Assembly (NCBI GenBank): GCA_038231995.1
Contig: JBBSIT010000001.1
Location: 1-27,411 of the forward strand
DNA: 27,411 nt
Origin: Acetobacterales bacterium
GTDB taxonomy: Bacteria; Pseudomonadota; Alphaproteobacteria; Acetobacterales; Acetobacteraceae
Direction of reading: 5' to 3'
The notes under the pieces were generated by a model. It searched no databases and was not told where the DNA came from. It saw nothing but the letters and a program-made list of their open reading frames with translations. The translations under genes were made by a program, and so were the position numbers. Positions 1 to 18,630 of this stretch are shown here, piece after piece (within the stretch, counting starts at the first letter, position 1; every line of letters begins with the position of its first letter).

Positions 1-99
1 AAGGAAACGCTCGCGGCTGCGGGCACGCGGCGCGCTCAGGGCCAAGCGGCGCAAATCCGCCTGCGTCTGGCCCCAGCGCTCACGATCAACTCGTAACAT
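1..99 (-). mobile_element. 5' end of a probable IS630-family transposase (HTH) ORF, truncated by the window edge
   Basis: Not in the ORF track. ATG at 99 reads MLRVDRERWGQTQADLRRLALSAPRARSRERFL with no stop to position 1. I recognise this 'MLRVD..RWGQT..DLRRLAL.AP..R.RERFL' N-terminus from alphaproteobacterial IS630-type HTH proteins (recall, not a search). A TA dinucleotide at 170-171 is a candidate left boundary. Confidence 0.6.
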
Positions 100-191
100 C
101 AGTTCTGACGATACCTTCACCAGAAAGCCGCCATATGGGAATGACCGCCGTGCAGCCAAGCACAACAACTATGGGTCTCGAACTGGACGCG

Positions 192-256
192 GTTTCACGC
201 GGCTACTCAACTCGATCGGACCCCAAGCGCGGGTCCGCTCGAGTTGAAGCCGCTTT
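192..256 (-). repeat. Structured ~65-bp palindromic repeat, copy 1 (overlaps the modC stop codon)
   Basis: Minus strand AAAGCGGCTTCAACTCGAGCGGACCCGCGCTTGGGGTCCGATCGAGTTGAGTAGCCGCGTGAAAC. Stems GCGGCT/AGCCGC, TCAACTCGA/TCGAGTTGA and CGGACCC/GGGTCCG. Shares an exact 18-nt end with 17356-17419. Confidence 0.85.
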
Positions 257-1331
257 AATCCAATATCTCCACAGCGACCGACTTGAACAGCGCGAGGGCG
301 GGCACGCCGGGCCGGAGGCCGAGGCGGATGACGGCGTCCGGCGTGACGCGCGCGAGCAGGGCGCCGCCGTCCAGCGCGAGTCCGATCAGGGCGGCGTGGC
401 GGGCCTTGTCCTCGGTGATGGTGGTCACGGTCGCGGGCAGGATATTGTGCAGGCTGACGGCCTCGGGCGCCCGGGTGGCCAGAACGATCTCGCGCGCAGG
501 AACCCGCAGGCGCACAGGCACGCCGAGAGCGGACACGATAAGCGGCACGAGGATGCTGCGCCCCGCCGCCGTCACCTCCGTCAGCCGGCGATCGGGGTGA
601 TGCGCCGCGATGCGGCCGGCAAGGATCGCCGCCGCGTCGTCACGGAACGCGAGCGGCAGGTCGCTCCGCGCCAGGACAGCGTCGAGCGGTCCCGCGGCGC
701 GCACCCGCCCCGCCTCCAGCAGCACCAGCGTGTCGGCCAGGCGCACCACCTCGTCCAGCGCGTGCGTCACATACAGGATCGGCAATCGGAGGGTCGTGCG
801 GAGGCGGCCCAGATACGGCAGGATCTCGGCCCGGCGGGCGGTGTCCAGGCTCGCCAACGGCTCGTCCATGAGCAGCAGCCGCGGCTGGGCCAGCAGGGTG
901 CGGCCGATCGCGACGCGGCTGCGCTCCCCGCCCGACAGGGTCGCCGGACGACGCGCCAGCAACGCCTCGATGCCGAGCAGCCCGACCACGTCGTCGAGCA
1001 GGATGGGCCCTGGCGGCGCCCGGCGCAGGCCGTAGCGCAGGTTGCCCAGCACGGTCATGTGCGGGAACAGCCACGCATCCTGGAACACGAGGCCGACCCG
1101 GCGCCGTTCGGGCGGTGTCCAGACTCCCCCGCCGGTGTCGGCGAGCACGGCACCGGGCAGGGCGATGCGGGCCCAGTCCGGCCGCAACAGGCCGGCCACG
1201 ATCGCGATCACCGTGCTCTTGCCTGCACCGGATGGGCCGAACAGCGCGGTGACTCCCGGCGCCTGCGCGGAGAACGCGACGTCGAGCGTCAGGCCAGGGA
1301 AGGCATGGCGCAGCGCAACATCGAGCGTCAT
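255..1331 (-). CDS. modC: Molybdate ABC transporter ATP-binding protein (358 aa)
   Basis: Starts MTLDVALRH at ATG 1331, overlapping the modB stop. Walker A GPSGAGKST, signature LSGGE, Walker B LLLMDEP, VTH switch, C-terminal TOBE/Mop-like segment (SLHNIL...ALFKSVAV). Confidence 0.93.
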   Translation of the reverse strand: MTLDVALRHAFPGLTLDVAFSAQAPGVTALFGPSGAGKSTVIAIVAGLLRPDWARIALPGAVLADTGGGVWTPPERRRVGLVFQDAWLFPHMTVLGNLRYGLRRAPPGPILLDDVVGLLGIEALLARRPATLSGGERSRVAIGRTLLAQPRLLLMDEPLASLDTARRAEILPYLGRLRTTLRLPILYVTHALDEVVRLADTLVLLEAGRVRAAGPLDAVLARSDLPLAFRDDAAAILAGRIAAHHPDRRLTEVTAAGRSILVPLIVSALGVPVRLRVPAREIVLATRAPEAVSLHNILPATVTTITEDKARHAALIGLALDGGALLARVTPDAVIRLGLRPGVPALALFKSVAVEILD

Positions 1332-3510: not shown

Positions 3511-4481
3511 GGAATGAGGACGGTGCTGCCGGTCGTCTTGCGGCCCTCGAGCGCGATGTGTGCTGCGGCAGCGTCGCGCAGCGGAAAGACCTGGTTCACC
3601 CGGACCTGCACCGCGCCCGACCGCACGACCTCGAACAGCTCCGATGCGGCGGTCTCAAGATCGGTGCGGCGCGCCGTGTAGGTGGCGAGGCTGGGCCGGG
3701 TCAGGAAGAGGCTGCCTTTGGCGCCGAGCAGCCCGATATCCACGGGGGGGACCGGACCGGACGAGTTGCCGTAGCTGACCATGGTGCCCAGCGGCGCCAG
3801 GCTGTCGAGGCTGACCCCGAACGTGTCCTTGCCGACGCTGTCATAGACCACCGGCACCATGGCGCCGCCCGTGATGCGCTTGACCTCGCCGGGCAGGGAC
3901 TGGTGCCCGACGATCACGTGCGCGGCGCCGTGGGCACGCGCCAGGTCGGCTTTGCTCTCGGTCGAGACGACGCCGATGACCATCGCCCCGAGATGCTTGG
4001 CCCACTGGCACATGATGAGCCCGACTCCGCCGGCCGCCGCGTGCACCACGATCGGGTCGCCGGACTTCAAGGGGTAGGTGCGGCGCAGCAGGTACTGAGC
4101 GGTCATGCCCTGCAGCATCATGGCCGCGGCAGTCCGGTCATCGATGTCTTCGGGCAGCCGGACGAGCCGATCCGCGGCGATCACCCGATCAGTCGCGTAG
4201 GCGCCGATCGGGGCGCTGGCATAGGCGACGCGGTCGCCTACGGCGAGCCCCGTGACGCCGGCGCCGAGAGCGCGGATGACACCCGCGGCCTCCATCCCGA
4301 TCGTAGCTGGCAGGGTTGGGATCTTGTACAGGCCCGTGCGGAAATAGACGTCGATGTAATTGAGGCCGACCGCGGTGTGGTGGACCAGCGCCTCGTCGGG
4401 TCCCGGCTCCGGAGTGGGCACGTCCTCCCACTGCATCATTTCGGGGCCGCCGTGGGCGTGGATACGGATCGCCTTGGTCAT
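3507..4481 (-). CDS. qor: NADPH:quinone oxidoreductase, zeta-crystallin/MDR family (324 aa)
   Basis: MTKAIRIHAHGGPE start, GLNYIDVYFRTGLY, IGMEAAG, nucleotide-binding HAAAGGVG, YDSVGKDTF, GSLFLTRPSL, TTGSTVLIP end. ATG 4481 overlaps the ogt stop (ATGA). Confidence 0.92.
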   Translation of the reverse strand: MTKAIRIHAHGGPEMMQWEDVPTPEPGPDEALVHHTAVGLNYIDVYFRTGLYKIPTLPATIGMEAAGVIRALGAGVTGLAVGDRVAYASAPIGAYATDRVIAADRLVRLPEDIDDRTAAAMMLQGMTAQYLLRRTYPLKSGDPIVVHAAAGGVGLIMCQWAKHLGAMVIGVVSTESKADLARAHGAAHVIVGHQSLPGEVKRITGGAMVPVVYDSVGKDTFGVSLDSLAPLGTMVSYGNSSGPVPPVDIGLLGAKGSLFLTRPSLATYTARRTDLETAASELFEVVRSGAVQVRVNQVFPLRDAAAAHIALEGRKTTGSTVLIP

Positions 4482-4954
4482 CGTGAACCCCCTGGAAAAC
4501 GGCCGCGTGTGGCCACTCCAGCTTCGAGTGACAGGAGAAAACGCTTGGTGTCCAGCCCCTCGCCGCCGGAGAAGCCGCCGATCCCGTTCGCTGCCACGAC
4601 GCGATGGCAAGGGATGATGACCGGGATCGGATTGGACCGGGTGGCGCCGCCGATCGCTCGCGCGCAGCCGCCCGCATCCCTGGCAAGCTCGGCATAGGTC
4701 CGAGTTTGCCCGAACGGGATGCCGCACAGGGCGGTCCATACCTTGAGCTGATACTGAGAACCTCGGGGCTGCAGAGGCAGATCGAACTCGGTCCGTTCGC
4801 CGTCGAGATAGGCATGCAACTGGTCGCGTGCTTCCTGAAGCAGCGGTGTCTGGGTCTGGTCGCGTCCCCAGCCCCAGTCCAGCGCTACGATGGCATCGTC
4901 TTCCTCAGAGATCGTGAGAGCGCCCAACGGCGAGTGCAGGGACAATTGGGGCAA
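4478..4954 (-). CDS. ogt: Methylated-DNA--protein-cysteine methyltransferase (158 aa)
   Basis: TTG 4954 with GAAGG 6 nt upstream gives MPQLSLHSPLGALT. Contains KVWTALCGIPFGQTRTY, ARAIGGA and active-site PCHRV. Confidence 0.9.
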   Translation of the reverse strand: MPQLSLHSPLGALTISEEDDAIVALDWGWGRDQTQTPLLQEARDQLHAYLDGERTEFDLPLQPRGSQYQLKVWTALCGIPFGQTRTYAELARDAGGCARAIGGATRSNPIPVIIPCHRVVAANGIGGFSGGEGLDTKRFLLSLEAGVATRGRFPGGSR

Positions 4955-4981
4955 GCTCAGCCTTCTGGTAAAACCAGCCAG

Positions 4982-5010
4982 ATGGCACTCGCAGCCGGCC
5001 GCCCTGTCAA
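4982..5010 (-). promoter_or_regulatory. Candidate sigma70 promoter for the ogt cluster
   Basis: Minus strand TTGACA (5010-5005), 17-nt spacer, TGCCAT (4987-4982), about 28 nt upstream of the ogt start. The -10 match is weak. Confidence 0.4.
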
Positions 5011-5091
5011 GCGCGTAGTGCGCAGCGTGGTCCCGTCGCGTCCGCCGTGCTACGCGGCACGACAACACCAGGATGTATCGGATCGGACGGG

Positions 5092-5697
5092 ATGATCTCG
5101 TTGGACACCAGTTTCGCGGGCCCGGATGTTTCACGTGAAACACACGCCCGCCTCGACGCCTATGTCGTGCTGCTGCAGAAATGGATGCGCACGATCAATC
5201 TCGTGTCCAGCGGCGACCACGATGCGCTCTGGACGCGGCATGTCCAGGACAGCCTTCGCCTGGTCCCGCTGCTTCCGGCCGGGATCGATCGCGCTATCGA
5301 CCTAGGATCGGGGGGCGGCCTGCCCGGTCTGGTGCTCGCCATAGCCAGCGGCATTCCGTTCGACCTTGTCGAAGCCGACCGCAGGAAAGCCGCTTTCCTC
5401 CAGGAAGCCGCCAGAGTCACCCGCGCGCCAGTGACGGTCCGTTGCCAACGGATCGAGGCCGGCGGGATAACGCCGGCAATGCTCGTTACGGCGCGCGCCC
5501 TGGCGCCATTGCCCCGGCTGCTCGGGTACGCGCATCCCCTGCTGCAGCCCGGCGGGGTCTGCCTATTCCCCAAAGGCGCCGACGCCGAGCAGGAGCTCGC
5601 GGCCTGCACGGGATGGAAGATGCACGTCGAGCGATTTCCCGCTCCGACGAACATGGGCTCTGTCGTGCTCCGAATCACGCAGCTGGCCCATGCCTGA
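5092..5697 (+). CDS. rsmG: 16S rRNA m7G527 methyltransferase (201 aa)
   Basis: KWMRTINLVS, WTRHVQDS, SAM-binding DLGSGGGLPG, LVEADRRKAAFL, VTARALAPL, LFPKG; directly upstream of parA. Confidence 0.93.
   Translation: MISLDTSFAGPDVSRETHARLDAYVVLLQKWMRTINLVSSGDHDALWTRHVQDSLRLVPLLPAGIDRAIDLGSGGGLPGLVLAIASGIPFDLVEADRRKAAFLQEAARVTRAPVTVRCQRIEAGGITPAMLVTARALAPLPRLLGYAHPLLQPGGVCLFPKGADAEQELAACTGWKMHVERFPAPTNMGSVVLRITQLAHA
5127..5142. promoter_or_regulatory. parS centromere site
   Basis: Perfect palindrome TGTTTCACGTGAAACA matching the chromosomal parS consensus, about 550 bp upstream of parA, inside rsmG codons D-V-S-R-E-T. Confidence 0.9.
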
Positions 5698-6511
5698 CCA
5701 TTCGCCGCCGCTGCGCGCGCCCCGGGGCAGCGAGCCGCGCATCCTCGCCGTCGCCAACCAGAAAGGCGGCGTGGGCAAGACCACGACCGCCATCAATCTC
5801 GCGACCGCGTTGGCGGCGTGCGGAGAACGCGTGCTGCTGCTGGATCTCGACCCACAGGGCAACGCCTCGACAGGGCTCGGCCTGTCCAGGTCCACGCGCG
5901 GCGCAGGGATGTACGCCTTGCTGCTGGGTGGCGCCTCCCTGGAGGCTGTTCAACGCCCGACCGGCGTTCCGGGGCTGAGCATGGTGCCGTCCGATTCCGA
6001 CCTGGCCGGCGCAGAGGTCGAGCTGGCCGCGATGGAGCGGCGCGAATACCGTTTGCAGGAGGCGTTGCGCACCGCACCGGCCGGCGCCGGGCCGACCTAT
6101 GTCCTGATCGACTGCCCGCCCAGCCTCGGGCTGCTCACCGTCAACGGCCTCGTGGCGGCGGATGCCGTGCTGGTCCCCCTGCAATGCGAGTTCTTCGCGC
6201 TGGAGGGCCTGAGCCAGCTTGTACGGACGATCGACCGGGTGCGACAGAGCCTGAACCCCACACTCACTTTGCAAGGCATCGTCCTGACCATGTTCGACCG
6301 CCGCAACAACCTGTCGGAGCTGGTGGCCGCCGATGTACGGAGCTTCTTCGGCGATCGCGTCTATGAGACCGTCATCCCTCGCAACGTGCGCATCTCCGAG
6401 GCGCCAAGCCATGGCAAACCCGTGCTGATGTATGATCTCCGCTCGCCAGGCGCCCAAGCCTACGTGCGCCTGGCGGCCGAGGTCCTGCGCCGCGAGCGGG
6501 CCATCACATGA
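5690..6511 (+). CDS. parA: Chromosome partitioning ATPase (273 aa)
   Basis: Deviant Walker A NQKGGVGKTT, DLDPQGNASTGLG, IDCPPSLG, PLQCEFFALEGL, IPRNVRISEAPSHG. Confidence 0.96.
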   Translation: MPDHSPPLRAPRGSEPRILAVANQKGGVGKTTTAINLATALAACGERVLLLDLDPQGNASTGLGLSRSTRGAGMYALLLGGASLEAVQRPTGVPGLSMVPSDSDLAGAEVELAAMERREYRLQEALRTAPAGAGPTYVLIDCPPSLGLLTVNGLVAADAVLVPLQCEFFALEGLSQLVRTIDRVRQSLNPTLTLQGIVLTMFDRRNNLSELVAADVRSFFGDRVYETVIPRNVRISEAPSHGKPVLMYDLRSPGAQAYVRLAAEVLRRERAIT

Positions 6512-7380
6512 GGGCGCCCGAAGCTCCTCCTCGCCTTGGCCGCGGTCTGGCTGCCCTGTTCGGCGATGCCACGCCGTCCGGCGCCGTCGAGGCGATGCGC
6601 CGGACCAACCTGCCCCTGACCGCGCTCGAACCGGGTCCGTTCCAGCCGCGGACCCGCATGGATCAGGAGGCGCTGGACGAGCTCGTGGCGTCCATCCGGC
6701 AGCAAGGCGTGCTGCAGCCTGTCCTTGCGCGGCCGCACCCGCTGACGGAGGGCCAATACCAGATCGTCGCGGGGGAACGGCGGTGGCGGGCGGCGCAGGC
6801 GGCCGGGCTGCACGACATGCCGGTGCTCATTCGGCGCCTCTCCGATACGGAGGCGATGGCCGCGTCGCTGGTCGAGAACCTGCAGCGGCAGGACCTCAAC
6901 GCGATCGAGGAGGCCGAGGGCTACCGCCGGCTCATCCAGGAGTTCGGGCTGACGCAGGACAAGCTCGGCGACGCCATCGGCAAGTCGCGCAGCCATGTGG
7001 CGAACTCCGTCCGCCTGCTGCAGCTCCCCGGCAGCGTGCGCGAGCGCGTGCAGGACGGCACGCTCTCCGCCGGGCATGCGCGCGCCCTGCTGACCCATCC
7101 AGAACCGGAGAGCGCCGCCCGCGCCGTCATCGCCCAGGGCCTCAACGTGCGGCAGACGGAGGCGCTGGCCAGCCGGACGGTGCGCTCCGTCGACCGCACG
7201 CGTCGCGCCGCCGATCGCGGCATCGCCGTCGAGACGGAGGCGGTCGCGCGCGAGCTGTCCGACCAGGTCGGGCTGCGGGTGGAGGTGTCCCATAGCGGAC
7301 GAGGCGGGACGGTCCGCATCCACTATCAGACGTTGGAGCAGCTCGACGGCCTCATTGCCCGCCTCAGCCGCTCGGGTTAG
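6508..7380 (+). CDS. parB: Chromosome partitioning protein (290 aa)
   Basis: RLGRGLAAL ParA-interaction N-terminus, FQPR, GVLQP, AGERRWRAA CTP-binding motif, ENLQRQDLNAIEEA, HTH TQDKLGDAIGKSRSHVANSVRLL. ATGA overlap with parA. Confidence 0.96.
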   Translation: MRAPEAPPRLGRGLAALFGDATPSGAVEAMRRTNLPLTALEPGPFQPRTRMDQEALDELVASIRQQGVLQPVLARPHPLTEGQYQIVAGERRWRAAQAAGLHDMPVLIRRLSDTEAMAASLVENLQRQDLNAIEEAEGYRRLIQEFGLTQDKLGDAIGKSRSHVANSVRLLQLPGSVRERVQDGTLSAGHARALLTHPEPESAARAVIAQGLNVRQTEALASRTVRSVDRTRRAADRGIAVETEAVARELSDQVGLRVEVSHSGRGGTVRIHYQTLEQLDGLIARLSRSG

Positions 7381-7382
7381 TT

Positions 7383-8393
7383 TTACCGCGATGCCGCCGC
7401 GCTCTGCCGGGCCATCTCCAGGACCAGCCGGCGTATCAGCAACGCGTCCTGCGCGCCGGTTTGCTTGCACGCGAGTTCCGTCCGGCGGACCGCCTGCATT
7501 GCGGCGGCGAGCCGAGCCAAAGTCCAAGTCTCGAGCGCTCGCTGGAACCCATTGACCCGGCGGAAGAACACCGGGGGCCGCATCGCCTTCACGGCGTCCG
7601 CGGCCGACAGCCCCGATTGCATGGACAGCCGCGCCGCCTGCAGGCGCCCGAGATGGGCCAGCAGCCCGCGGGCCGCAGCGACCGGAGCCAACCCTTCGGC
7701 CAAGGCGAGTTCGATGGAGATGTCCGCCGTCCGCACATCGCCCGACGTTGCCGCGAACATGGCGTCGTCGAAGGACGTGCCGGCCTGGTCGCCAACACAC
7801 ACCCGCGCCGCATCGAGGTCGAGGCTTCCATTCGGACCGGCATACAGGACCAGCTTATTCAGCTCGTTGCGCGTCGAGGCGCGGTCCGTCCCAAGGTGCT
7901 CCAGCAGCCATTGCAGCGCATCCGGCGTGATGCGGACCGAGGCCGCGGCGAGCGTGCCCTCGATCGTCTCGCGCAGCGCCCGGCCCTCCTCGGGGTAGCA
8001 GGCCAACGCCGCACCCGTCGGCATCCCCTCGACCAGGGCGCGCAGCTTGGAACGGCCCGGCAGGGCGCCAGCCTCCAGCACCACGAGCGAGTCGCCCCGG
8101 CCCTCCCCGATCTGGCGCACCGCGCCCGCCAGGCCGTCCGACGCATCGCGCACCCTGACGACCCTGCGGCCGCCCGTCATCGAGATCGCCTGCGCCTCCT
8201 CAGCCAGGCGGTCATGGTCCTCGCGCACGAGCCATGCCAGCCGGAACGGGTCGTCCCCCGGCCCGAGAACGGCCCGCGTGAGCTGATCGGCCCGGTGGCG
8301 GACCATCCCCTCGTCCTCGCCATGGAGCAGCACGATCCGGATTGCGCCGGGATCGGTCAGGAACGCCGCGACCCGGCGCGCCTCGACCTTCAC
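7383..8393 (-). CDS. holA: DNA polymerase III delta subunit (336 aa)
   Basis: GTG 8393 gives MKVEARRVAAFL; LLHGEDEG, RRVVRVR, SKLRALVE, ELNKLVLY, RPPVFF; canonical leuS-lptE-holA order. Confidence 0.88.
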   Translation of the reverse strand: MKVEARRVAAFLTDPGAIRIVLLHGEDEGMVRHRADQLTRAVLGPGDDPFRLAWLVREDHDRLAEEAQAISMTGGRRVVRVRDASDGLAGAVRQIGEGRGDSLVVLEAGALPGRSKLRALVEGMPTGAALACYPEEGRALRETIEGTLAAASVRITPDALQWLLEHLGTDRASTRNELNKLVLYAGPNGSLDLDAARVCVGDQAGTSFDDAMFAATSGDVRTADISIELALAEGLAPVAAARGLLAHLGRLQAARLSMQSGLSAADAVKAMRPPVFFRRVNGFQRALETWTLARLAAAMQAVRRTELACKQTGAQDALLIRRLVLEMARQSAAASR

Positions 8394-8415
8394 GCGCCAG
8401 CGATCCCGGCCGAAC

Positions 8416-8943
8416 TCAGGATACCGCCGCCCGGTTCGCGAAGAACGACGACAACTGCAGCGTGATCTGATCCGCCAGCGCCGACGTGATGCGCCGCGTT
8501 GCCGCGTCGTTCTCGAGCTCGAGCGCAAAGAATTGTTGGTTCAGCACGTTGTAGCCGTCCACGCTGCGCGCCGTCCCGTTCGCCACGACCGCACGCTCGA
8601 TCGATAGCTCCCGCAGCGTCCAGCTCGCCGTGCCGATCAGGCGGACGCGGGTGGTCGAGTTGTCGCGCTGGATGCCGGTCGCCTCGGGCAGCAGCACGAG
8701 AAGCACGCCGAGCTCGTAGCGTTTCGCAATCCCGGTCCCCGCACCCTCGAACCGCTGCCGCAGGGCCTGGCGCATCGATTGGCCCGAACGGTCCGGCAGA
8801 CGGGCGACGTAGATCGCGGCGAGCTCCGCTTGCGCGACGCTCAGGGCGCCGCCCGCACGGGGCGCATAGAGCGGGTGGAAGCCGCAGCCGGACAGCAGCG
8901 CGGCTGCCCCAGTCACCGCCCAGCGGCGTGGGACCGGAGCCAT
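8416..8943 (-). CDS. lptE: LPS assembly lipoprotein (175 aa)
   Basis: Lipobox LSG-C followed by GFHPLY; lies between leuS and holA. Confidence 0.85.
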   Translation of the reverse strand: MAPVPRRWAVTGAAALLSGCGFHPLYAPRAGGALSVAQAELAAIYVARLPDRSGQSMRQALRQRFEGAGTGIAKRYELGVLLVLLPEATGIQRDNSTTRVRLIGTASWTLRELSIERAVVANGTARSVDGYNVLNQQFFALELENDAATRRITSALADQITLQLSSFFANRAAVS

Positions 8944-8944
8944 C

Positions 8945-11557
8945 CTAGCTTGCCACCACGAAGTTCACGATACGGTTCGGCACATGGATCCGCTTGACCA
9001 CGCGCTTGCCCGCCAGCAGCCGCATGATGCCCGGCTCCGCCTCCGCTTCCGCTATCACCGCGTCCGCGGACGAGTCGGGCGGCATAGCCAGGGTCGCGCG
9101 GAGCTTGCCCATGACCTGGACCGCGATCGTCACCGTATCGGCCGCGACCAACGCCGGGTCGGCCTCCGGCCAGGCGAGCTCGGCGACGAGCGCCGCGTCG
9201 CCGGGCAGCAGCATGGCGTGCAGCTCCTCAGCCAGATGCGGCATGAACGGGCCGAGCAGACGGGCCATCGTCAGCACGGCCTCCCGCCGCGCCCAGCCCA
9301 GGCCCGAGTCGTCGCCCGCAGTGCGCTCAGCCTCGCCCAGGGCCGACGTAAGCTCATAGAGCCGGGCCACGGCCACGTTGAACGCGAACCCTTCCAGCGC
9401 ATCTGTGACGGCGGCGATGCAGCGATGCGTCGCACGGCGGAGCGCCATCGCGGGCGGCCCGAAGCTCTCCGGCTGCGGCGTCTCGGGGCAGGCGGCCGCG
9501 ACGGCATGGGCGGTGCGATACACCCGCTGCGTGAACCGGAACGCGCCGGACACCCCGGCCTCGGTCCACTCGATATCGCGCTCCGGCGGATTGTCGGACA
9601 GCACGTACCAGCGCGCCGTGTCGGCGCCGAACCGCGTCAGGATCGCGTCGGGCTCGACCGTGTTGTGACGGCTCTTGGACATCTTCTCGACGCGGCCGAC
9701 CGTGACCGCCTCGCCGGTGCCGCGGTGCACGACGCTGCCATCCGGCCGGCGCTCGACGTCCTCCGGATACAGCCAGCTCCCGTCCGCGCCGCGGTAGCTC
9801 TCGTGCGTCACCATGCCCTGGGTGAACAGCGCCGCGAACGGCTCGTCCATGTCGAGGTAGCCCTCCGCCCGCATCGCGCGGGTGAAGAAGCGGGAGTAGA
9901 GCAGGTGCAGGATCGCGTGCTCGATGCCGCCGATATACTGGTCCACCGGCATCCAGTGGTCCACAGCAGGACGCAGCACTGGGACCTCGGCGTGGGGGCT
10001 GCAGAACCGGGCGAAGTACCAGGAGCTGTCCACGAAGGTGTCGAAGGTGTCGGTCTCACGCTGGGCCGGGCCGGCGCAGCGCGGGCAGGCCACGTATTTC
10101 CAGGTCGGGTGGTGATCGAGCGGGTTGCCCGGCCGGTCGAAGCTCACGTCCTCCGGCAGGCGGACCGGCAAGTCGGCCGCCGGCACGGGCACGACGCCGC
10201 AGGCCGCGCAGTGGATGATCGGGATCGGGCAGCCCCAGTAGCGCTGCCGGCTCACGCCCCAGTCGCGCAACCGCCAGTTCACGACGCCGCGCCCCGCATG
10301 CGCCTGCTCTAGCGCCTCGATGGCCGCCCGCTTGGCGGCTGCCGTGTCCATGCCGTTGAGGAACCCCGAGTTCATCACGGTGCCGGGGCCGACATACGCC
10401 GTGTCGGTGATGGCATGGGCTGCCTGGTCCTGACCCGGCGGCAGCACGACGGGCACGACCGGCAGGCCGTGTTTACGAGCGAAGTCGAGGTCGCGCTGGT
10501 CCTCGGACGGGCAGCCGAAGATCGCGCCGGCGCCGTATTCCATCAGCACGAAGTTCGCGATCCACACGGGGAAGGTCGCGTCGGGCAGGAAAGGGTGTGC
10601 GACGCGCAGCCCGGTGTCGTAGCCGCGCTTCTCCGCCGTCTCGATCGCGGCCTCGCTGGTGCCGAGCTGGCGGCACTCGGCGACGAACGCCGCGGCCGCC
10701 GGATCGCGCGCGGCGACTGCGGCGCTCACGGGGTGCTCGGGCGCCAAGGCGAGGAACGACATGCCGAACAGCGTGTCGGGCCGGGTCGTGAAGACCTCGA
10801 TCTCGCTCGCTGCTTCGAGGGGCGTCGCGAGCGGGAAGCGCACGCGCGCGCCCTCGCTGCGGCCGATCCATTTGGCCTGCATGGTGCGCACGCGCTCGGG
10901 CCAGCGGTCCAGCCCGTCCAGCGCCGCCAGCAGCTCGGGCGCGTACTGGGTGATGCGCAGGAACCACTGGGCGAGCAGCCGCTTCTCGACCGGGGCGCCG
11001 GAGCGCCAGCCGCGGCCGTCGATCACCTGCTCGTTGGCGAGCACGGTGCCGTCCACCGGGTCCCAGTTGACCCAGCTCTCCTTGCGCTCCACCAGGCCAC
11101 CGGCGAGCATGTCCAGGAACAGCCGCTGCTGCTGGCCGTAATACTCCGGGTCGCACGTCGCGAACTCGCGCGACCAGTCGAGCGACAGGCCCAGCCGCTG
11201 CAGCTCTGAGCGCATCGCATCGATGTTGGCCCGGGTCCATTCCGCAGGATGCACGCCTCGGTCCCGCGCCGCGTTCTCCGCCGGCAGGCCGAAGGCGTCC
11301 CAGCCCATGGGATGCAGGACGTCGAAACCTCGCGCCCGCTTGTAGCGGGCCACCACGTCGCCGAGCGCGTAGTTGCGCACGTGCCCCATGTGGATCTTGC
11401 CGCTGGGATACGGGAACATCTCCAGCACGTAGTATTTGGGCTTGTCGTCCCGCGGCACGTCCTCGGTGCGGAAGCAGTCGCGCTCGCGCCAGGCGCGCTG
11501 CCAACGGGGCTCGGCGGCGCGGAAGTCATAGACGGCGGGGTCGGGGCGGTCGTTCAT
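8945..11557 (-). CDS. leuS: Leucine--tRNA ligase (870 aa)
   Basis: [14 protein letters not shown] (HIGH), [21 protein letters not shown] editing domain, [33 protein letters not shown]. Confidence 0.98.
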
Positions 11558-11643
11558 CGGCGCGAGGTCATCCTGGGGGGTGCCCCTGTATCCCCGAGAA
11601 CGGCGCGCCCAGCAACCCGGCCGCGCTCAGCTTCGGGGCGCGG

Positions 11644-12177
11644 TCAGCTCCGGGCGACTTGCGACCTCAGCTCCCGCGCGCGGGCCAGAACCTTGTTCTC
11701 GATCTCGCCCGTCGTGGTCGGGCTGACCGGGGCATCCACCCACTGCCCGCCCTGCAGGACCTGACGGAAGATGGAGATGCGCACGCCGTCGGCCCGCAAC
11801 TGCCGGCCCAGGATGTAGCCGGTCGCCTTGAAGCGCTCGCCGGTGCTGGTCGGCGGCTGATACCAGTCGGTGATGATGACGCCGCCGAACGGGTCGGCAG
11901 AGGCCAGCGGCATGAACGCCAGCGTGTCCAGCGCCGCGCGCCACAGATAGGCGTTCACGCCCAATGCCGCGCCTTCCTCGGCCCGGCCAGCGTTCGCGCC
12001 CTTGCCGATGCCGAGCACCAGGCCCTGATCGCCGAACAGCCGGCCCTGCTCGCCGCCCTTGGTGCGGTAGTCCTGATATTCGTCCTCGGCCACGCCCTGG
12101 ACGCTGGAACGGCTGCAGCCAGCGAGCGCCAGCGCAACGGCAAGGGCGGCTAAGGGGAGGAGCGTACGTGGGACCAT
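11644..12177 (-). CDS. DUF3576-family outer-membrane lipoprotein (177 aa)
   Basis: ATG 12177, hydrophobic signal with lipobox LAG-C, core GVNAYLWRAALDTLAFMPLASADPFGGVIITDWY; upstream of leuS. Confidence 0.82.
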   Translation of the reverse strand: MVPRTLLPLAALAVALALAGCSRSSVQGVAEDEYQDYRTKGGEQGRLFGDQGLVLGIGKGANAGRAEEGAALGVNAYLWRAALDTLAFMPLASADPFGGVIITDWYQPPTSTGERFKATGYILGRQLRADGVRISIFRQVLQGGQWVDAPVSPTTTGEIENKVLARARELRSQVARS

Positions 12178-12263
12178 GGGGCGCCTATGCAGAGAAGGCC
12201 CGCAGGAAGCGGGACGCCGCTGTCTAGCCTGCCCGGCGCCCATCGCCAAGTCCGGCCTCCACG

Positions 12264-12299
12264 TACGAAGAAGGGGTGGTGGTTGCCCACCGCCCCTCC
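12264..12299 (-). terminator. Probable intrinsic terminator of the porin gene
   Basis: Minus strand GGAGGGGCGGTGG-GCAA-CCACCACCCCTTC-TTCG: 13-bp stem with one mismatch and a GNRA loop, short pyrimidine tail, about 25 nt after the porin stop. Confidence 0.65.
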
Positions 12300-12323
12300 G
12301 GGTCGTCAAGCCGTAGCGTCAGC

Positions 12324-13772
12324 TTACCACTGGAAGCTGATGCCGGTGCCGATGACCTGGCCGATGACCTTGTTGTGGGTCTGCGTGCCGCCCGTGGCGA
12401 TGTTCGTAGCCGTCACGCCCTGGCCCGTCAGGAAGTCGAAGCCGTTCTGCTTGCGCTGATCCCAGAGATACGACGCGAAGACGGACACGCCCGGCGCCAG
12501 CGAGTAGGTAGCACCAGCCGCGATGCCCTGCTCGCGACGCTGACGGCCCAGGATGCCGTTCAGGTTGTCGCCCGCCGACTTGTAGTCGAGGTAATGGGCG
12601 CCGACGATCACCGGTCCGACCGTGTAGGACACGCCGACCAGCCAGGCCTCGCCGCTCGGCGCGCCTCGTGCGGGCAGGGCGAACGACCCGTTGAACCGGC
12701 CATACTGATACTTACCGCCGAAGCTCAGGCCGCCATAGGTGACAGCCGCGCCGAAGTCGCCGACCGAAAGGCCCTCGTAGTTGAGACGGTTGTTCGCATT
12801 GAAGGCAGGCACGAACGGGTTGCCGCTGTTGTCCTTGACGGACGCCGAGCCGATGTAGCCGCCTGTCGCGGCCACGCCGAAGCCGGCGAAGGTGCCGCGG
12901 TAGCGCAGCAAGGCGTCGACGAGGTTGCGGCGGCGCTGGCTCTCGGCGTTGGACGGCGAGGAGGAGAGGCGGTCGCAGCCCGGGCCGGCGCCGTTGCCGG
13001 CGTTCGCACCGGCCGCCCCGGTGAAGGCGCCGGCGGCGTTCACGAAGTTGGTGCCCTGGTTGCTGGCGCCGCCGCAATGGCTGGCCAGGCTGCCGTTGCC
13101 GGTGTTCGGCTCGTAGGCCACGCCGAAGTCGAACCCGAACAACTGCGGCGACAGATAGACGGCCTTCGAGGTCGTGTACAGGTTGCCGGTGTCGGCGAAT
13201 GGCCAGGTGAGGGTCGCCCCGCTCGTCAGGAAGCCGGGCATGTCGCCGTTCCAGCCGCCGTCGTTGAAGTTCTCGAAATTGCCCGTCATGTAGAGGCTGC
13301 TCGGGCCGTCGATCATGCCGAAGCGGACCGTGCCGAGCTGCGGCGTGCCGAGGTAGCCCCAGGCGCGGCGGAAATACAGGCTGTTGCGCGCACGGTCCTG
13401 CTGCGAGATGGAGCCGAAGAGGCCGCCGCCGGCGCCGGAGGTGTTGTCCTGCCGGATTTCCAGGGCCGCGCCGTAGCGCAGGCCGTTCGCCGCCACGCCG
13501 TCGAAGCCCGGATACAGGCGGGAGTAGGTGCCGAACGTGTAGTTCGTTAGCTTGTTGGTGCCGTTCTGCGGCGTCAGGCCGTTCGCGCTGCCGGCCAGGT
13601 TGTTTTCCAGGTCGCGGTCATTGACGATCGCGGCGTAGAACCGGACGCGGCCGTTCAAGCGGACGGTGATCGTGCCTGGCGCAGGCGTCGCCGGCGCCTG
13701 GGCGTCGGCAATCGTTGCCGCTCCCATCGACGCACCCAGTGCGGCCACAGTGGCCAGCAGGAGCTTACGCAT
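12324..13772 (-). CDS. Outer-membrane porin, Gram-negative porin type (482 aa)
   Basis: Strong RBS GAGGAGG before ATG 13772; signal peptide MRKLLLATVAALGASMGAATIADA; ITVRLNGRV, GLRYGAALEIR, Gly/Asn/aromatic-rich strands; terminal aromatic GISFQW. Confidence 0.88.
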   Translation of the reverse strand: MRKLLLATVAALGASMGAATIADAQAPATPAPGTITVRLNGRVRFYAAIVNDRDLENNLAGSANGLTPQNGTNKLTNYTFGTYSRLYPGFDGVAANGLRYGAALEIRQDNTSGAGGGLFGSISQQDRARNSLYFRRAWGYLGTPQLGTVRFGMIDGPSSLYMTGNFENFNDGGWNGDMPGFLTSGATLTWPFADTGNLYTTSKAVYLSPQLFGFDFGVAYEPNTGNGSLASHCGGASNQGTNFVNAAGAFTGAAGANAGNGAGPGCDRLSSSPSNAESQRRRNLVDALLRYRGTFAGFGVAATGGYIGSASVKDNSGNPFVPAFNANNRLNYEGLSVGDFGAAVTYGGLSFGGKYQYGRFNGSFALPARGAPSGEAWLVGVSYTVGPVIVGAHYLDYKSAGDNLNGILGRQRREQGIAAGATYSLAPGVSVFASYLWDQRKQNGFDFLTGQGVTATNIATGGTQTHNKVIGQVIGTGISFQW

Positions 13773-14042
13773 AGATTCCTCCTCAAAACGCCGATTGCCC
13801 GGCGGACATTCAGGCCCCGCCCCGTTCCCACCAGACACACGCGTCGCCGCGGCACATCCTGAACGGGCGGGGGCAGCCAGACCTGAGAGAGTATTGCCTC
13901 GCCCCCCGCGTTCCCGCAATCGACTCACAAGCGTCCCCATGGCAATCGCGAAACACTGTGGCGCCACGGCCACATGCCCCCTGCGCAAACCTGCCGTGGC
14001 AGGGCTTGACCAGAGGCCTGCCGGGGAACGAGCCTGCCCGCC

Positions 14043-14732
14043 ATGCAGCCGCTCCCAGCCTTCACCGACATCGCCGGCGCCCTCGGCGCCGTCCGGGACC
14101 GCATCGCCGCGGCCGCTTTGCGGGCAGGCCGGCTGCCCTCGGACGTGACGCTCGTCGCCGTCTCCAAGACGCATCCGGCAGCCCTGGTCGCGGCTGCCCT
14201 GGCCGCCGGGCAGACGATTTTCGGCGAGAACCGCGTGCAGGAGGCCGTCGCCAAGTTCCCCGCTCTGCGCGAGTCGCATCCCGCGCTGCACCTGCACCTG
14301 ATCGGCCCGTTGCAGACCAACAAGGCGCGGGAAGCCGTGCGCCTCGCCGACACGATCGAGACGCTCGACCGCCCCCGTCTCGCCGACGCGCTGCTCGACG
14401 CCATCGGCCGCGAGGGCCGCACGCCCCGGCTGCTCGTCCAGGTCAATGTCGGCGACGAGCCGCAGAAGGCCGGCATCCCCCGCGCGGACGCCGACGCCTT
14501 CATCGAGGACTGCCGCGCCCGGTTCGGACCGGCGCTGCGCGGCCTGATGTGCATCCCGCCCGCCGAGGGCGACCCGGCGCCACACTTCGCGTGGCTCGCC
14601 GCCTGCGCCGCGCATCACGGGCTGGCCCAGCTCAGCATGGGCATGTCCGGCGACTTCGAGACGGCCGTCGCGCACGGCGCCACCCATGTGCGGGTCGGCA
14701 GCGCGATCTTCGGCACGCGCCCGGCGCCCTGA
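14043..14732 (+). CDS. yggS: Pyridoxal phosphate homeostasis protein (229 aa)
   Basis: LVAVSKT (PLP lysine), FGENRVQE, HLIGPLQTNK, GLMCIPP, LSMGMSGDF, GATHVRVGSAIFG. Confidence 0.95.
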   Translation: MQPLPAFTDIAGALGAVRDRIAAAALRAGRLPSDVTLVAVSKTHPAALVAAALAAGQTIFGENRVQEAVAKFPALRESHPALHLHLIGPLQTNKAREAVRLADTIETLDRPRLADALLDAIGREGRTPRLLVQVNVGDEPQKAGIPRADADAFIEDCRARFGPALRGLMCIPPAEGDPAPHFAWLAACAAHHGLAQLSMGMSGDFETAVAHGATHVRVGSAIFGTRPAP

Positions 14733-14996
14733 TCCGGCGTTACGCCTCGTGCCGGCCGGCATAGGAGCGGCTCAGGCCGTCGAGGACGAGATGCGGCGGG
14801 GCGCCATCCGCCATGGGCGGCCCTGTGGAACCCGGCCGCTGCTTGCGCATTGCAACCCGACGGGCCTATGCCTCGCGCTCCGCACGGCGCGGTGCGGGCA
14901 GCGACCTGGACACCCCTTCGCGCAGGACGAACCTCCGATGGCCTGCCTCCCCTGCCACCCCAAGCTGGCCGCTCGCTGGTCGATGGCCGCGGGCCG

Positions 14997-16895
14997 ATGA
15001 GCGGCGCCATAGCGCAGGCAGCCCCGGCGCACCCGGCGCCGCCGTTGCGCGCCAGCCTGCTCCTGGCCGTGCTGGGCGTGGTGTACGGCGACATCGGGAC
15101 CAGTCCGCTCTATGCGCTGAAGGCGAGCCTGCTGCACGTGACGCAGGGCGGCGTGCACGAGGCCGAGGTGCTCGGCGTCCTGTCGCTGATGTTCTGGTCG
15201 CTGATCCTGGTGGTCACGGTCAAGTACGTGCTGCTGATCCTGCGGGCGGACAACAATGGCGAGGGCGGCATCCTAGCGCTGATGGCGCTGGCCCAGCGCA
15301 ACGTCAAGAGTCTCCGGTTCCGGACCACCCTGGGGCTCGTGGGCATCGCCGGGGCCTGCCTGTTCTTCGGGGACGGCGCGATCACGCCGGCCATCTCGGT
15401 GCTTTCGGCGGTTGAGGGCCTGCAGGTCGTCTATCCCAACCTGGAGCATTTCGTGCTGCCGATCTCGGTGCTGGTCATCGCGGGCCTGTTCGCGGTCCAA
15501 GCCTACGGCACGGCCAGCATCGGCCGCGTGTTCGGCCCGGTCATGCTCCTGTGGTTCCTGGCGCTGGGCTTGCTCGGCGTGTTCGAGATCGCCCGGTATC
15601 CCGCCGTGCTGGCCGCGCTATCGCCGCTGCATGCCGCGAGCTTCTGCATGAGGCATGGCTGGCTCGCCTTCGTGACCCTCGGCTCGGTGGTGCTCACCGT
15701 CACGGGAGCGGAGGCGCTCTATGCCGACATGGGGCATTTCGGGGCGCGCCCGATCCGGCTGGCGTGGCTGTTCTTCGTGCTGCCCAGCCTCGCGCTGAAC
15801 TACCTCGGACAGGGCGCGCTCGTCCTCAACGACCCGGCGACGCTCGGCAGCCCCTTCTTCCTGCTGTGTCCCGAGCCGTTGCGCCTGGCCCTGGTGGTGC
15901 TGGCCACGTTCGCGACGGTGATCGCGAGCCAGGCCATGATCTCCGGCGCGTACTCCGTCGCGCGCCAGTGCATGCAGATGGCGTTCCTGCCGCGCATGAC
16001 GGTGCGGCATACGAGCCAGACGGAGGAAGGGCAGATCTACCTGCCCCAGGTCAACGCGTGCCTGCTGGTCGCCGTCCTCGTCCTGGTGCTCTCCTTCCGC
16101 ACCAGCGAAGGGCTGGCGTCGGCCTACGGCATCGCCGTCACCGGCACCTTCCTGTGCACCAGCGTGCTGGCGGTCGTGGTGTTCCGGAGGCAGTTCGGGT
16201 GGTCGCGCCTGCTGGCGGGCGCCGTCTTCGGGACGTTCTTCATCATCGACGGGCTGTTCTTCGCCGCCAATGCGCTGAAGATTCCCGATGGCGGCTGGGT
16301 GCCGCTGCTGCTCGGCATCGCGCTGATGGCCATGATGACGTCCTGGCATCGCGGCCGCGACCTGCTGCTGGCCCGCTGGAGGCAGGACAGCCTTCCGCTC
16401 GCGCCCTTCCTCGCCCGGCTCCCGCAGTCCCGCACCGTCCGCGTGCCTGGCCAGGCGGTCTTCCTGACCGGCAACCCCGACTACGTGCCCGCGGCCCTGC
16501 TGCACAACCTCAAGCACAACAAGGTGCTGCACGAGCGGGTGCTGTTCGTGACCGTGGAGAACCTGGACGTGCCCGAGGCCGGGCCGGACAGCCGGGCCGA
16601 GGTCACTGAGCTTGCACCCGGCGTGCACCGGGTGATCCTGCGCTACGGCTTCATGGAGAGCCCGAACATCCCCAAGGCGCTCGAAGGGCTACGCGGGAGC
16701 GGCGTGCATTACGAGCCGATGCAGGCCAGCTTCTTCCTGAGCCGCGAGGTCCTGGTCAGCGCGATGGTGCCCAAGCTGCCGATGTGGCGGCTCTATCTGT
16801 TCCTGTTCATGGCCCGCAACGCCGTGCCCGCGACCGAATTCTTCCGCATCCCCAGCGACCGCGTGGTGGAGCTTGGGGTGCGCGTGGCGCTCTGA
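14997..16895 (+). CDS. kup: KUP/HAK potassium transporter (632 aa)
   Basis: [13 protein letters not shown] signature, [59 protein letters not shown]. Start taken at ATG 14997. Confidence 0.96.
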
Positions 16896-16997
16896 TCGGA
16901 GGCCGCCGGGTCAGCGCGGGCAAACTCCGGGGCGCCTGGCGGCGTTTGAGTGCGGCGGCGTGGTTTCATGCGCCCGACTTCGACCAAGGCAGGGGGC

Positions 16998-17348
16998 ATG
17001 ACGAAGTTGACGATGGTGCTGGCGCAGGGGCCCAATCTGCCCGAGGGCGACTTGCAGGACCGGCTGACCGTCCACCTCTGCTTGACGTCGCAGGGCCAGA
17101 TCGACCTGCACTCCTACGAGACCGGACCGGCGCCTTGGCTTGCCATCCGCGAGCGGCCCGGCCACGAGCCGCGCCGCTCGGAGGTGATCCGGCTGGACGA
17201 GGGCTGGGCGCTGCAGAGCCTGCGCGGAGACGATGACCCGCTGTGGACGTTCGAGGGCCACGTGTTCCGCCCTGGCGAGCTGGTCCGCCTGGGCCGGCCG
17301 GATGGGAGGGAGTTTCTGTTCCGCATCGTCGCAGTCGATCCGGACTGA
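16998..17348 (+). CDS. Conserved hypothetical protein (116 aa)
   Basis: Purine-rich RBS AGGGGG before ATG 16998, GC3-biased codons. The pattern LA.GP..PEG ... GQID ... GW ... DDDP ... HVFRPGELV ... DG ... FRI resembles an uncharacterised alphaproteobacterial family (recall only). Confidence 0.7.
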   Translation: MTKLTMVLAQGPNLPEGDLQDRLTVHLCLTSQGQIDLHSYETGPAPWLAIRERPGHEPRRSEVIRLDEGWALQSLRGDDDPLWTFEGHVFRPGELVRLGRPDGREFLFRIVAVDPD

Positions 17349-17355
17349 ATGCGTC

Positions 17356-17419
17356 AAAGCGGTTTCACCCTGACTGGACGTGCTCTTGCGTTCAGTCAGG
17401 GTGAGTAGCCGCGTGAAAC
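17356..17419 (+). repeat. Structured ~64-bp palindromic repeat, copy 2 (between convergent stops)
   Basis: AAAGCGGTTTCACCCTGACTGGACGTGCTCTTGCGTTCAGTCAGGGTGAGTAGCCGCGTGAAAC. Perfect 12-bp stem TCACCCTGACTG/CAGTCAGGGTGA; same ends as copy 1. Confidence 0.85.
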
Positions 17420-17424
17420 GAAGG

Positions 17425-18630
17425 CTAGCGCGCAGCCTGCTCCAGCACGCGCCGGAACAGGGCGAGCTGCCCCTCGCTCGTCGCCTCCCAGCCGAACCCT
17501 TCGGCATAGGCCCGCGTCTCCGCCCGGGATGGGGGCTTCGCCATGAGGTCCTGCACGCCCTGTGCTACGCCCTCGGCCGTGTTGGCCGGCATGATGACCC
17601 CGGCCGCACGCGACTGGACCACTTCGGGATTGCCCGGGATCGGGCTCGCGACCACGGGCGTCCCGCACGCCATGGCTTCGAGCAGCACGTTGGCCCAGCC
17701 TTCCCGGCTCGATGCGAGCACGAGCGCGTCGGCCGCCGTGTAGATCTCCGGGAGCTCCCCGTGCGGGCGGCTGCCGAGCAGGGCCACGCGGTCCGCAACG
17801 CCCAGCTCGGCCGCGAGCGCCAGGAGACGGCCCCGCTCCGGTCCGTCGCCGACGATCAGCAGCCGCCAGCCGGGCAGGTGCGCCATGGCCGCGACCACGC
17901 GGTGGTGGCCCTTGCGTTCGACGAGGTGGCCGACCGAGAGCAGCGTCGGTCCGTCCAGGCCCAGCCGCGCCCGCGCCTGCCCGCGGTCCAGCGGGCGGAA
18001 GGCGTGCAGGTCCACGCCGTTGCGCAGCACCGTAACCTTCCCGGGCGGCGCGCCGAGGCCCAGCAGCGCGTCGCGCAGGCCGGCGCTGACCGTGATCATC
18101 GCATCGGCGTCGCGCATGGCGCGCAGGATCAATCGGCGGGGCACGGCGTAGTCCGGCAGTTGCGTCACATCGGAGCCGCGGGCGGTCACCACCACCGGGA
18201 CTCCGAACTGCCGGCCGAGCCAGGTCGCGACCACGCCGTCGGGGTAGAAGTAATGCGCGTCGATCAGGTCGAACACGAGGCCCTGGGCCTGCAGGCGCGC
18301 GATGGCGCGGCGCGCCGCGAGGAACAGCGTGAACGGCGCCGCCGACATGCCGACCTTGGGCAGCACGACGTAGCGGGGATGATGCACCTCCAGGCCGTGC
18401 CGCATCTCCTGCTGCGGCACGGCTGCGTGGCGCGCCCAGGCGCCGAAGCGCGGATCGCGGCTTGGGAACCAGGGCACGGGCGCCACCACGGTGCTCGCGG
18501 CCTCGCGCGTGCCGACGAGGTTGCGAAGCCGGTTCTCGACGAAGACGCCGTGGTTCGGCTGGGCGCCGTTGGGATAGAGCGTCGTGAACGTCAGCAGCCG
18601 GACAGGCCGGCTGCCTAGGGCGCCTCGCAT
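17425..18630 (-). CDS. Glycosyltransferase family 4 (GT-B); start may be ATG 18630 or ATG 18732
   Basis: RLLTFTTLYP N-terminal strand, DLIDAHYFYPDG, TARGSD, SVGHLVERKG, REGWANVLLEAMACG (E-x7-E). Confidence 0.88.
   Translation of the reverse strand: MRGALGSRPVRLLTFTTLYPNGAQPNHGVFVENRLRNLVGTREAASTVVAPVPWFPSRDPRFGAWARHAAVPQQEMRHGLEVHHPRYVVLPKVGMSAAPFTLFLAARRAIARLQAQGLVFDLIDAHYFYPDGVVATWLGRQFGVPVVVTARGSDVTQLPDYAVPRRLILRAMRDADAMITVSAGLRDALLGLGAPPGKVTVLRNGVDLHAFRPLDRGQARARLGLDGPTLLSVGHLVERKGHHRVVAAMAHLPGWRLLIVGDGPERGRLLALAAELGVADRVALLGSRPHGELPEIYTAADALVLASSREGWANVLLEAMACGTPVVASPIPGNPEVVQSRAAGVIMPANTAEGVAQGVQDLMAKPPSRAETRAYAEGFGWEATSEGQLALFRRVLEQAAR

Follow-up and report, generated by a model that had tools for sequence, protein, structure and literature searches.

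A TA-flanked family of palindromic repeats, conserved in structure and abutting stop codons, in an Acetobacteraceae genome

Two short stretches in a 27,411-nucleotide window from an Acetobacterales bacterium (by window we mean the whole stretch of DNA that was analysed) carry the same ends and the same hairpin plan, and each follows a gene. What kind of element are they, and why do they lie where they lie? An initial annotation of the window had placed two copies of about 65 bp at 192-256 and 17356-17419, and both were confirmed. The minus strand carries copy 1 and the plus strand copy 2, which, once the strands were checked, agrees with the earlier claim that the two share one orientation relative to the gene that each follows. 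The terminal 18 nt were said to be identical; they are, with 0 mismatches (the shared 3' 18-mer is TGAGTAGCCGCGTGAAAC), and the chance expectation for this 18-mer in the window is 0.01 matches. The 4-nt blocks that differ between the copies still pair, ACTC with GAGT in one and CCCT with AGGG in the other. Thus, the copies are real, but the extent first given to them was too narrow. The element's first bases form a YTAR box, which overlaps the stop codon upstream, and both copies run past the earlier limits through GTGAAAC, where copy 1 is cut. The features concerned are these:

1-195, minus strand: left end of an IS630-family insertion sequence (terminal repeat AAACCGCGTCCAGTTCGAGACCC, transposase ORF from 99)
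192-258, minus strand: copy 1, a hairpin-1-only module with a subfamily-B-like inner stem (from sequence and RNA fold)
255-1331, minus strand: modC-like ABC ATPase gene (ABC_tran and TOBE), whose stop is the first triplet of copy 1
16998-17348, plus strand: 116-aa ORF with no Pfam family, whose TGA is 5 nt upstream of copy 2
17354-17428, plus strand: copy 2, a hairpin-1-only module of subfamily A (from sequence and RNA fold)
17425-18630, minus strand: GT4 glycosyltransferase gene, convergent on copy 2, whose stop lies within the element's terminal CTAG

On the minus strand, 5' to 3', copy 1 reads T-TAA-AGCGGCTTCA..stem..loop..stem..TGAGTAGCCGC-GTGAAAC, and the modC-like gene ends on its TAA (257-255). 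The IS630-family end abuts and truncates it after GTGAAAC, four bases (AAAC) being common to both, and the contig begins within that insertion sequence. Copy 2 reads T-CAA-AGCGGTTTCA..stem..loop..stem..TGAGTAGCCGC-GTGAAAC-GAAGG-CTAG. Its 5' box has decayed from TAA to CAA and it ends at the middle CTAG of the element, whose CTA (17425-17427) provides the TAG stop of the GT4 glycosyltransferase gene. Each copy folds as RNA into one long bulged hairpin (copy 1, -43.4 kcal/mol, z -5.3; copy 2, -42.5 kcal/mol, z -5.9), and neither contains the second hairpin of the complete element.

The genome that holds the window (G000; 4.86 Mb in 843 contigs, 70% G+C, 82.8% complete) contains 70 matches to the 18-mer at up to 3 mismatches, compared with 2 for a reversed control. 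Thus, the family is not limited to two copies. An nhmmer profile built from the 18-mer matches gave 100 matches, or 93 non-redundant copies, of which about 50 are full-length, about 26 contain hairpin 1 (H1) only and about 15 are fragments, several of them with hairpin 2 (H2) only. The complete element is about 105 bp long and consists of H1, an A-rich linker and H2, in the order Y-TA-R-AGCGGYTTCA, H1, GTGAAAC-AAAGG, C-TA-G, H2, C-TA-G. H1 is a 55-bp bulged hairpin closed by GCGGYT/ARCCGC with a two-base bulge; H2 is a nearly perfect hairpin of about 35 bp that follows H1 in about half of the copies. Each hairpin is flanked by TA in a YTAR box, mostly CTAA or CTAG. The boundary boxes read YTAR in 47 of 82 copies at the 5' end and CTAG in 40 of 75 in mid-element and 33 of 61 at the 3' end.

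At least four subfamilies (A to D) can be distinguished, which have wholly different H1 inner stems, each with a matching type of H2. Within a subfamily identity is about 90% over the full length, unpaired parts included, which argues that the family has been copied and has not arisen by convergence. Subfamily A carries a terminal inverted repeat of 13-15 nt, RAGCGGTTTCACCC, at both ends; in subfamilies B, C and D this repeat is weak, with about 8 of 13 positions matching. As a separate observation, CTAG is 6.5-fold under-represented in the genome (2,048 occurrences, where base composition predicts about 13,400), and 93 of the genome's CTAGs fall inside repeat copies.

It had been suggested from the two window copies that structure is conserved rather than sequence. 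Covariation in both stems bears this out. In an alignment of 38 full-length copies (A1), RNAalifold predicted 35 pairs, and compensatory double changes occur in 28 of them. Cells of the alignment were paired at 94.8%, compared with 79.6% in shuffles, and none of 500 shuffles reached the alignment on any of five pairing measures; when partner columns were slid as a control, pairing fell to 33-41%. The tetranucleotide GTAG, which had been taken as a link to REPs of the RAYT type, does not hold up as a tag. It occurs in 13 exact copies, many more (about half) have GTAA, and others have GGTG, GTCA or GTGG; the fourth base covaries, pairing with the Y of GCGGYT in the opposite arm. In short, the position reads GTAR or GGTG, and the tetranucleotide is absent in relatives from other genera.

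The two strands of the element do not fold equally well. The top strand was the better folder in every pair compared (copy 2, -42.5 versus -33.7 kcal/mol; copy 1, -43.4 versus -41.5; a third comparison, -72.7 versus -60.2), because G-T mismatches outnumber A-C mismatches on it. We considered this asymmetry as a sign of a role in RNA and rejected it, because the G-T excess is present whichever strand is transcribed: G-T and A-C mismatches on the top strand number 40 and 18 where the top strand is transcribed and 42 and 24 where the bottom strand is. The excess is thus not simply the result of selection on RNA. It may come from a DNA-strand-specific step or have been inherited from master copies.

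How do the copies meet the genes around them? Gene positions came from a self-trained codon-usage gene caller (4,954 genes, 86% coding) and are not a curated annotation. The initial annotation had both copies right after a stop codon, and this is true of the window copies and of the family. Among about 85 copies, the first triplet at the 5' end is TAA in 34, TAG in 18 and TGA in 11, and the stops of genes genome-wide are 62% TGA, 26% TAG and 12% TAA. As the two usages differ, the stop belongs to the element. Where a same-strand gene lies upstream, its stop is the first triplet of the element in 19 of 33 copies; where a convergent gene follows, its stop is the terminal CTA of CTAG in 17-19 of 29. 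In addition, an opposite-strand gene starts 0-20 nt from the element's 5' end in 24 of 34 cases, and H1-only copies mostly lie between convergent genes. Virtual excision of the element with one TA leaves TAA or TAG in all 20 cases in this genome in which both TAs survive, a result that is consistent with the rule but is not independent evidence for it, because the boxes are nearly constant.

Relatives within another genus, g58, differ in whether a site is filled; one nearly closed genome of this genus, G057, carries at least 19 copies. At a first site, the empty sequence of G159 reads ..ACGC-TA-GACGGATTT, with the TA inside a TAG stop, the filled sequence of G057 reads ..ATAC-TA-element-TA-AATGGATTT, and G157 reads ..CGA-TG-AAGAATGGATTT. 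Thus, there is a single TA when this site is empty and a TA on both sides when it is filled. A second site is empty in G157, with TA at a stop codon. At a third, only G057 has the element; in G158 the aligned flanks are 41 nt apart, and in all species the neighbouring protein stops at one and the same codon. These three orthologous comparisons, from another genus and at 85-91% identity, include one that is clean on both sides. We infer from them that TA duplication is the general rule, although the YTAR boxes, being palindromic and nearly constant, are possibly part of the element and not derived from the target. The earlier argument that the element has no target-site duplication and so is not a MITE therefore fails: TA flanks the copies in YTAR, and the empty site has a single TA. 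Four further loci of G057 (L105, L106, L110 and L112) gave no readable empty site.

For copy 2 itself, no readable empty site was found among 40 relatives, because the two flanking genes lack synteny in other genera, with an identity of just about 70%. In contigs of four metagenomes, a related strain (X3) spans copy 2 with the element present, and no clean element-less joint was seen at this position; a metagenome joint from 4635 to 17429 has just 27 letters on its shorter side. No element copy was seen in 4440-5200 of the window. Compared with one orthologue, which is not decisive, the GT4 glycosyltransferase displays no truncation of its C-terminus, and an exact-protein look-up of it returned no record.

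When we tabulated orientation against flanking genes, it proved to depend on the subfamily. Subfamily A lies sense, downstream of genes (top strand transcribed in 15, bottom in 3), whereas subfamilies B, C and D are mostly antisense between co-directional genes (top 6, bottom 15; A versus B/C/D, Fisher p = 0.001). Antisense copies of B and D display, on the transcribed strand, the TAG of the upstream gene followed by AGC-ATG. From the upstream stop to the next start, a frame of 33 sense codons spans the whole element and ends on a TAA or TAG that overlaps or abuts that start (TAATG, TAGTG, TAG-ATG or TAG-C-ATG). At tight operon junctions, with 0-3 nt to the next start, the intact 33-codon frame and the early ATG are present in 8 of 8 cases. 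Tight junctions account for 8 of about 25 open-frame copies, compared with 1 of about 27 closed-frame copies, the latter with a 4-nt gap. Because such a frame would be open by chance about half of the time in DNA of 70% G+C, the evidence lies only in its link with context. A TGA at codon 20 closes this frame in subfamily A, and in B copies that are not in operons the ATG or the frame is gone. The flanks of the tight junctions are real operon partners, for example a liv-type binding protein, permease and ATPase, or a class II aldolase and an FAD oxidoreductase. Neither window copy is in the bridging-frame configuration.

Based on these results, we propose a non-autonomous element of the MITE/REP kind, a palindromic repeat that is mobile, takes TA as its target, tolerates stop codons and survives according to what its transcribed strand does. 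We give this reading a probability of about 0.62. The element would insert into a TA dinucleotide and duplicate it. In a genome of 70% G+C, TA would be found mainly in TAA and TAG stops and in stop/start overlaps of the TAATG type. Since A or G is the first base of the element on either strand, TAA or TAG would be restored at both junctions, the flanking proteins would stay unchanged and the insertion would be nearly neutral.

The fate of a copy would then depend on what its transcribed strand does. Subfamily A, copy 2 of the window included, may persist downstream of genes in the sense orientation, where it would form a very stable hairpin at the 3' end. Antisense copies of subfamilies B and D may be kept inside operons as a translatable bridge, in which an ATG 3 nt after the upstream stop opens a 33-codon frame that ends touching the next start and could keep translation coupled. 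The hairpins probably also form barriers at transcript 3' ends, and on the bottom strand H2' with CCUUUGUUU is probably a weak terminator. Mobilisation would occur in trans, by a separate enzyme, possibly one of the many TA-targeting IS630-type transposases of the genome. The part of the model that invokes simple selection on RNA does not explain the G-T excess on the top strand.

How far does the family reach? The 18-mer, exact or with 1 mismatch, was found in none of 120 other genera of the family Acetobacteraceae, and a scan of 185,000 species genomes gave single chance matches and two real copies in a Rhodopila sp. MAG (Acetobacteraceae). Thus, the exact 18-mer motif is lineage-specific. 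By comparison, a covariance model of the full element matched over the whole length in 32 of 140 other Acetobacteraceae genera. It matched in 0 of 149 other alphaproteobacterial families, in a search that also served as a negative control for the model but that weighs little as evidence at one genome per family. The cross-genus consensus is CTAGAGC-hairpin-GCTCG-nAAAyAAAGG-CTAGAGC-hairpin-GCTCTAG, in which the A-rich linker is conserved across genera though it is unpaired.

A broader reading of the same data is a tentative possibility, to which we give some weight but would not commit ourselves. Here the repeats would form an Acetobacteraceae-wide class of mobile, 'translationally transparent' hairpins that insert at the TA of stop codons and rebuild stops at both ends, 102 nt apart in frame, and that have split into specialised subfamilies. 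The gene-end subfamily would act as a sense 3' hairpin, and the operon-junction subfamilies as antisense copies with an ATG-initiated bridging ORF. The enzyme that moves them would read the structure on one DNA strand and not the terminal sequence.

A second alternative is that the element is first of all a selected RNA element (a terminator, a 3' stabiliser or an RNase E processing site) and that its copying is incidental. Very stable hairpins directly after stop codons would suit this, as would the conservation across genera of an unpaired A-rich linker, the location of H1-only copies mainly between convergent genes, and a subfamily orientation that tracks the direction of transcription. In full-length copies, the stretch that comes after H2 on the bottom strand, CCUUUGUUU or CCTTTGTTT, was flagged by a simple pattern scan as terminator-like. 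However, the element's own (top) strand, which is the one transcribed for subfamily A, lacks a U-tract, as the initial annotation had observed. Furthermore, many copies lie inside operons, where termination would harm, presence and absence vary among congeners at sites that are otherwise conserved, and the high identity among copies speaks for copying rather than convergence. A purely 3'-UTR RNA role, which had been suggested earlier, does not fit the many copies that lie antisense inside operons. We therefore regard an RNA element as unlikely to be the primary explanation; it is compatible with the TA-targeting mobile repeat as a secondary effect, not as a replacement.

It is also improbable that the element is a MITE derived from, and moved by, one of the genome's IS630-family insertion sequences. 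At least three IS630 types are present, with 6 DDE_3 fragments, and one IS end occurs in 18 copies. These insertion sequences target the TA in (C/T)TA(A/G), often in the element's own boundary boxes: TA-targeting IS630-type elements lie exactly in the boundary TA at six places (C697, C517, C428, C598, C284 and C379), so the boxes act as landing sites. Mobilisation in trans is active in this genome, given a 120-bp MITE that has the terminal repeat of an IS and at least 35 near-identical copies. But the terminal repeats of the insertion sequences (AAACCGCGTCCAGTT.., GTGCTCTGTCATCC.., GCTTGAGAACCG..) are unlike the ends of the element, the element family is older and far more diverse than they are, and elements of the IS5/IS427 type likewise duplicate TA in YTAR (PMC2266754). 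No autonomous IS with matching ends was found near the DDE_3, DDE_Tnp_1 or DUF4096 loci of the 83%-complete, 843-contig genome, and none was found in the nearly closed G057, where all 19 terminal motifs belong to small elements. A first version of the search for a parent IS by pairs of terminal motifs was too permissive and returned noise only. Thus, of the marks of a MITE, target-site duplication is found in the filled and empty sites of g58 and a parent IS is not found.

Least probable by far, and largely refuted, is a REP/REPIN family moved by a RAYT (a domesticated IS200/IS605-type Y1 transposase) through the hairpin and GTAG on single-stranded DNA: the elements are extragenic and palindromic with covarying stems, both window copies contain GTAG, the better top-strand fold and the direction-independent G-T excess would suit a one-DNA-strand mechanism, and GTAG-REP termini are known to donate TAG stops (PMC3733652), but a search for a RAYT/TnpA gene flanked by copies found no Y1_Tnp (PF01797) in the window's genome (83% complete), the domain occurs in 3 of 32 other element-bearing genera versus 11 of 108 genera without the element and in no closed genome that carries it, and the tag itself varies, with GTAA instead of GTAG in about half of the copies and GGTG in some, behaves as a covarying part of the stem and is missing in relatives from other genera.

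Our results place this repeat with the REP, RIME and MITE kind, in line with the REP/RIME-like family that had been suggested. The TA-targeting mobile repeat that we favour behaves as a REP or MITE would, with some traits of a MIRU, while the tests for a RAYT-moved REP failed. MIRUs of Mycobacterium tuberculosis reportedly lie in the intercistronic gaps of operons, where a small ORF overlaps the flanking stop and start, and these overlapping ends are said to suggest translational coupling. Likewise, subfamilies B and D carry an ORF that bridges the stop and start of flanking operon genes, and such an internal ORF was found in 8 of 8 tight junctions. However, MIRUs are tandem direct repeats and not hairpins; the element studied here is not tandem and so is no member of the MIRUs, and its frame is present in some subfamilies and in one orientation only.

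Correia elements are flanked by TA and, like our element, have no known cognate transposase. TA-duplicating MITEs as a group (Correia/CREE of Neisseria; IS630/Tc1-type; reviewed in PMC10969869) resemble it in being about 100-150 bp long, non-coding, intergenic and polymorphic between relatives, and their terminal inverted repeats have a good counterpart in subfamily A, with a weak one in B, C and D. It differs from them in that its ends are conserved over about 12 nt only while its interior is held by structure, in that H1 and H2 also occur alone, and in that insertion is centred on stop codons.

With REP, BIME and REPIN sequences (PMC3733652) the element shares high copy number, extragenic location, G+C richness, covarying palindromes, mosaics of modules and termini that donate stops. 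GTAG REP termini often supply the stop codon of a flanking ORF (Di Nocera et al. 2013, PMC3733652). In contrast to these, it has no conserved GTAG or CGTC tag and no RAYT, its unit, in which a linker joins a bulged hairpin of 55 bp to a hairpin of 35 bp, is longer and bounded by CTAG or CTAA, and there is evidence of TA duplication. Bru-RS1 and Bru-RS2 of Brucella and RIME of rhizobia are similar in being alphaproteobacterial, about 100 bp long and built of two large palindromes. IS711, an insertion sequence that duplicates TA in YTAR, has hot spots in Bru-RS (PMC2266754), much as IS630-type insertion sequences land in the YTAR boxes described here. The likeness to Bru-RS and RIME is one of size, architecture and setting and not of sequence as far as shown, and the covariance model matched in 0 of 149 other alphaproteobacterial families, at one genome per family.

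Thus, the separate traits of the element have precedents in stop-supplying REP termini, TA-duplicating MITEs, palindromes that are IS hot spots and the bridging ORFs of MIRUs. Absence from Rfam, which the initial annotation had raised as a test of novelty, was confirmed: the window gave no match, and six full copies, searched with gathering and E-value thresholds, gave just sub-threshold hairpin look-alikes (miRNA models). No description of this repeat family was found in the searched literature or in Rfam, and the family seems to be undescribed, though of the familiar REP/MITE-like kind.

We believe that the family matters for several reasons. In this genome, and in about a quarter of the Acetobacteraceae genera sampled, a good share of gene boundaries is marked by these elements. 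Annotation pipelines are ignorant of them, so that stop codons, short spurious ORFs and 'intergenic' RNAs are easily misread at such places. The elements also offer a clean natural case in which a selfish repeat would enter tightly packed and even overlapping genes without harm, through stop-codon targeting, regeneration of stops on both strands and, in some subfamilies, a bridging frame. Additionally, they are an example of a structure-conserved mobile element without a known mobilising enzyme, and they are hot spots of IS630-type insertion and cause contig breaks in metagenome assemblies.

Several observations concern the insertion sequences of this genome in their own right. The IS at 1-195 of the window is about 1.3 kb long and encodes DDE_3, with a full copy at about C628:2100-3415. 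Its terminal repeat, AAACCGCGTCCAGTTCGAGACCC, occurs at 18 left ends including that of the window, mostly at contig ends, and the IS probably causes many of the assembly breaks. At the other 17 left ends the flank reads T/AAAC.. (the slash marks the junction), in keeping with a TA target; the window's junction with copy 1 reads GTG/AAAC instead of T/AAAC, perhaps because a short piece between two AAAC repeats was deleted. The terminal repeat of this IS is shared by a MITE of about 120 bp (AAACCGCGTCCAGTTTG...CAAACTGGACGGGGTT), which is found at C628:3296-3416 and at least 35 other places (for example on C507, C410, C25, C18 and C95). Its copies are 99-100% identical, which gives it the appearance of a recent burst, and it is clearly mobilised by IS630-type transposases. 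A second IS630-type IS, with the end ..GGAGGGATGACAGAGCAC, lies in the TA of a boundary CTAG at C697 (1-275), C517 and C428; on C517 and C428 it is downstream of the element. The same six bases as at this IS end, GAGCAC, precede the element at C312.

In genus g58, G157 (L098:2293-2460) and G159 (L099:1333-1500) carry at the third site a different, AT-rich insert of about 168 nt, with two hairpins of A/T tracts, that begins directly at the TAA stop. A dispersed repeat unrelated to the element, 115-190 nt long, is found at L105:968-1157 of G057 and is matched at least 8 times in G157 of the same genus.

Within the window's own genome, a diverged second copy of 16710-17345 (82% and 72% identity) lies at C673:144-850. 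The region doubled there comprises the end of the gene upstream of the 116-aa ORF and the region of that ORF, and the duplicate is a paralogue or else comes from a second strain in the bin. Last, 680 bp of the window (4482-5165) were left uncalled by the codon-usage gene caller but look coding on the minus strand, and they may be a gene with atypical codon usage.
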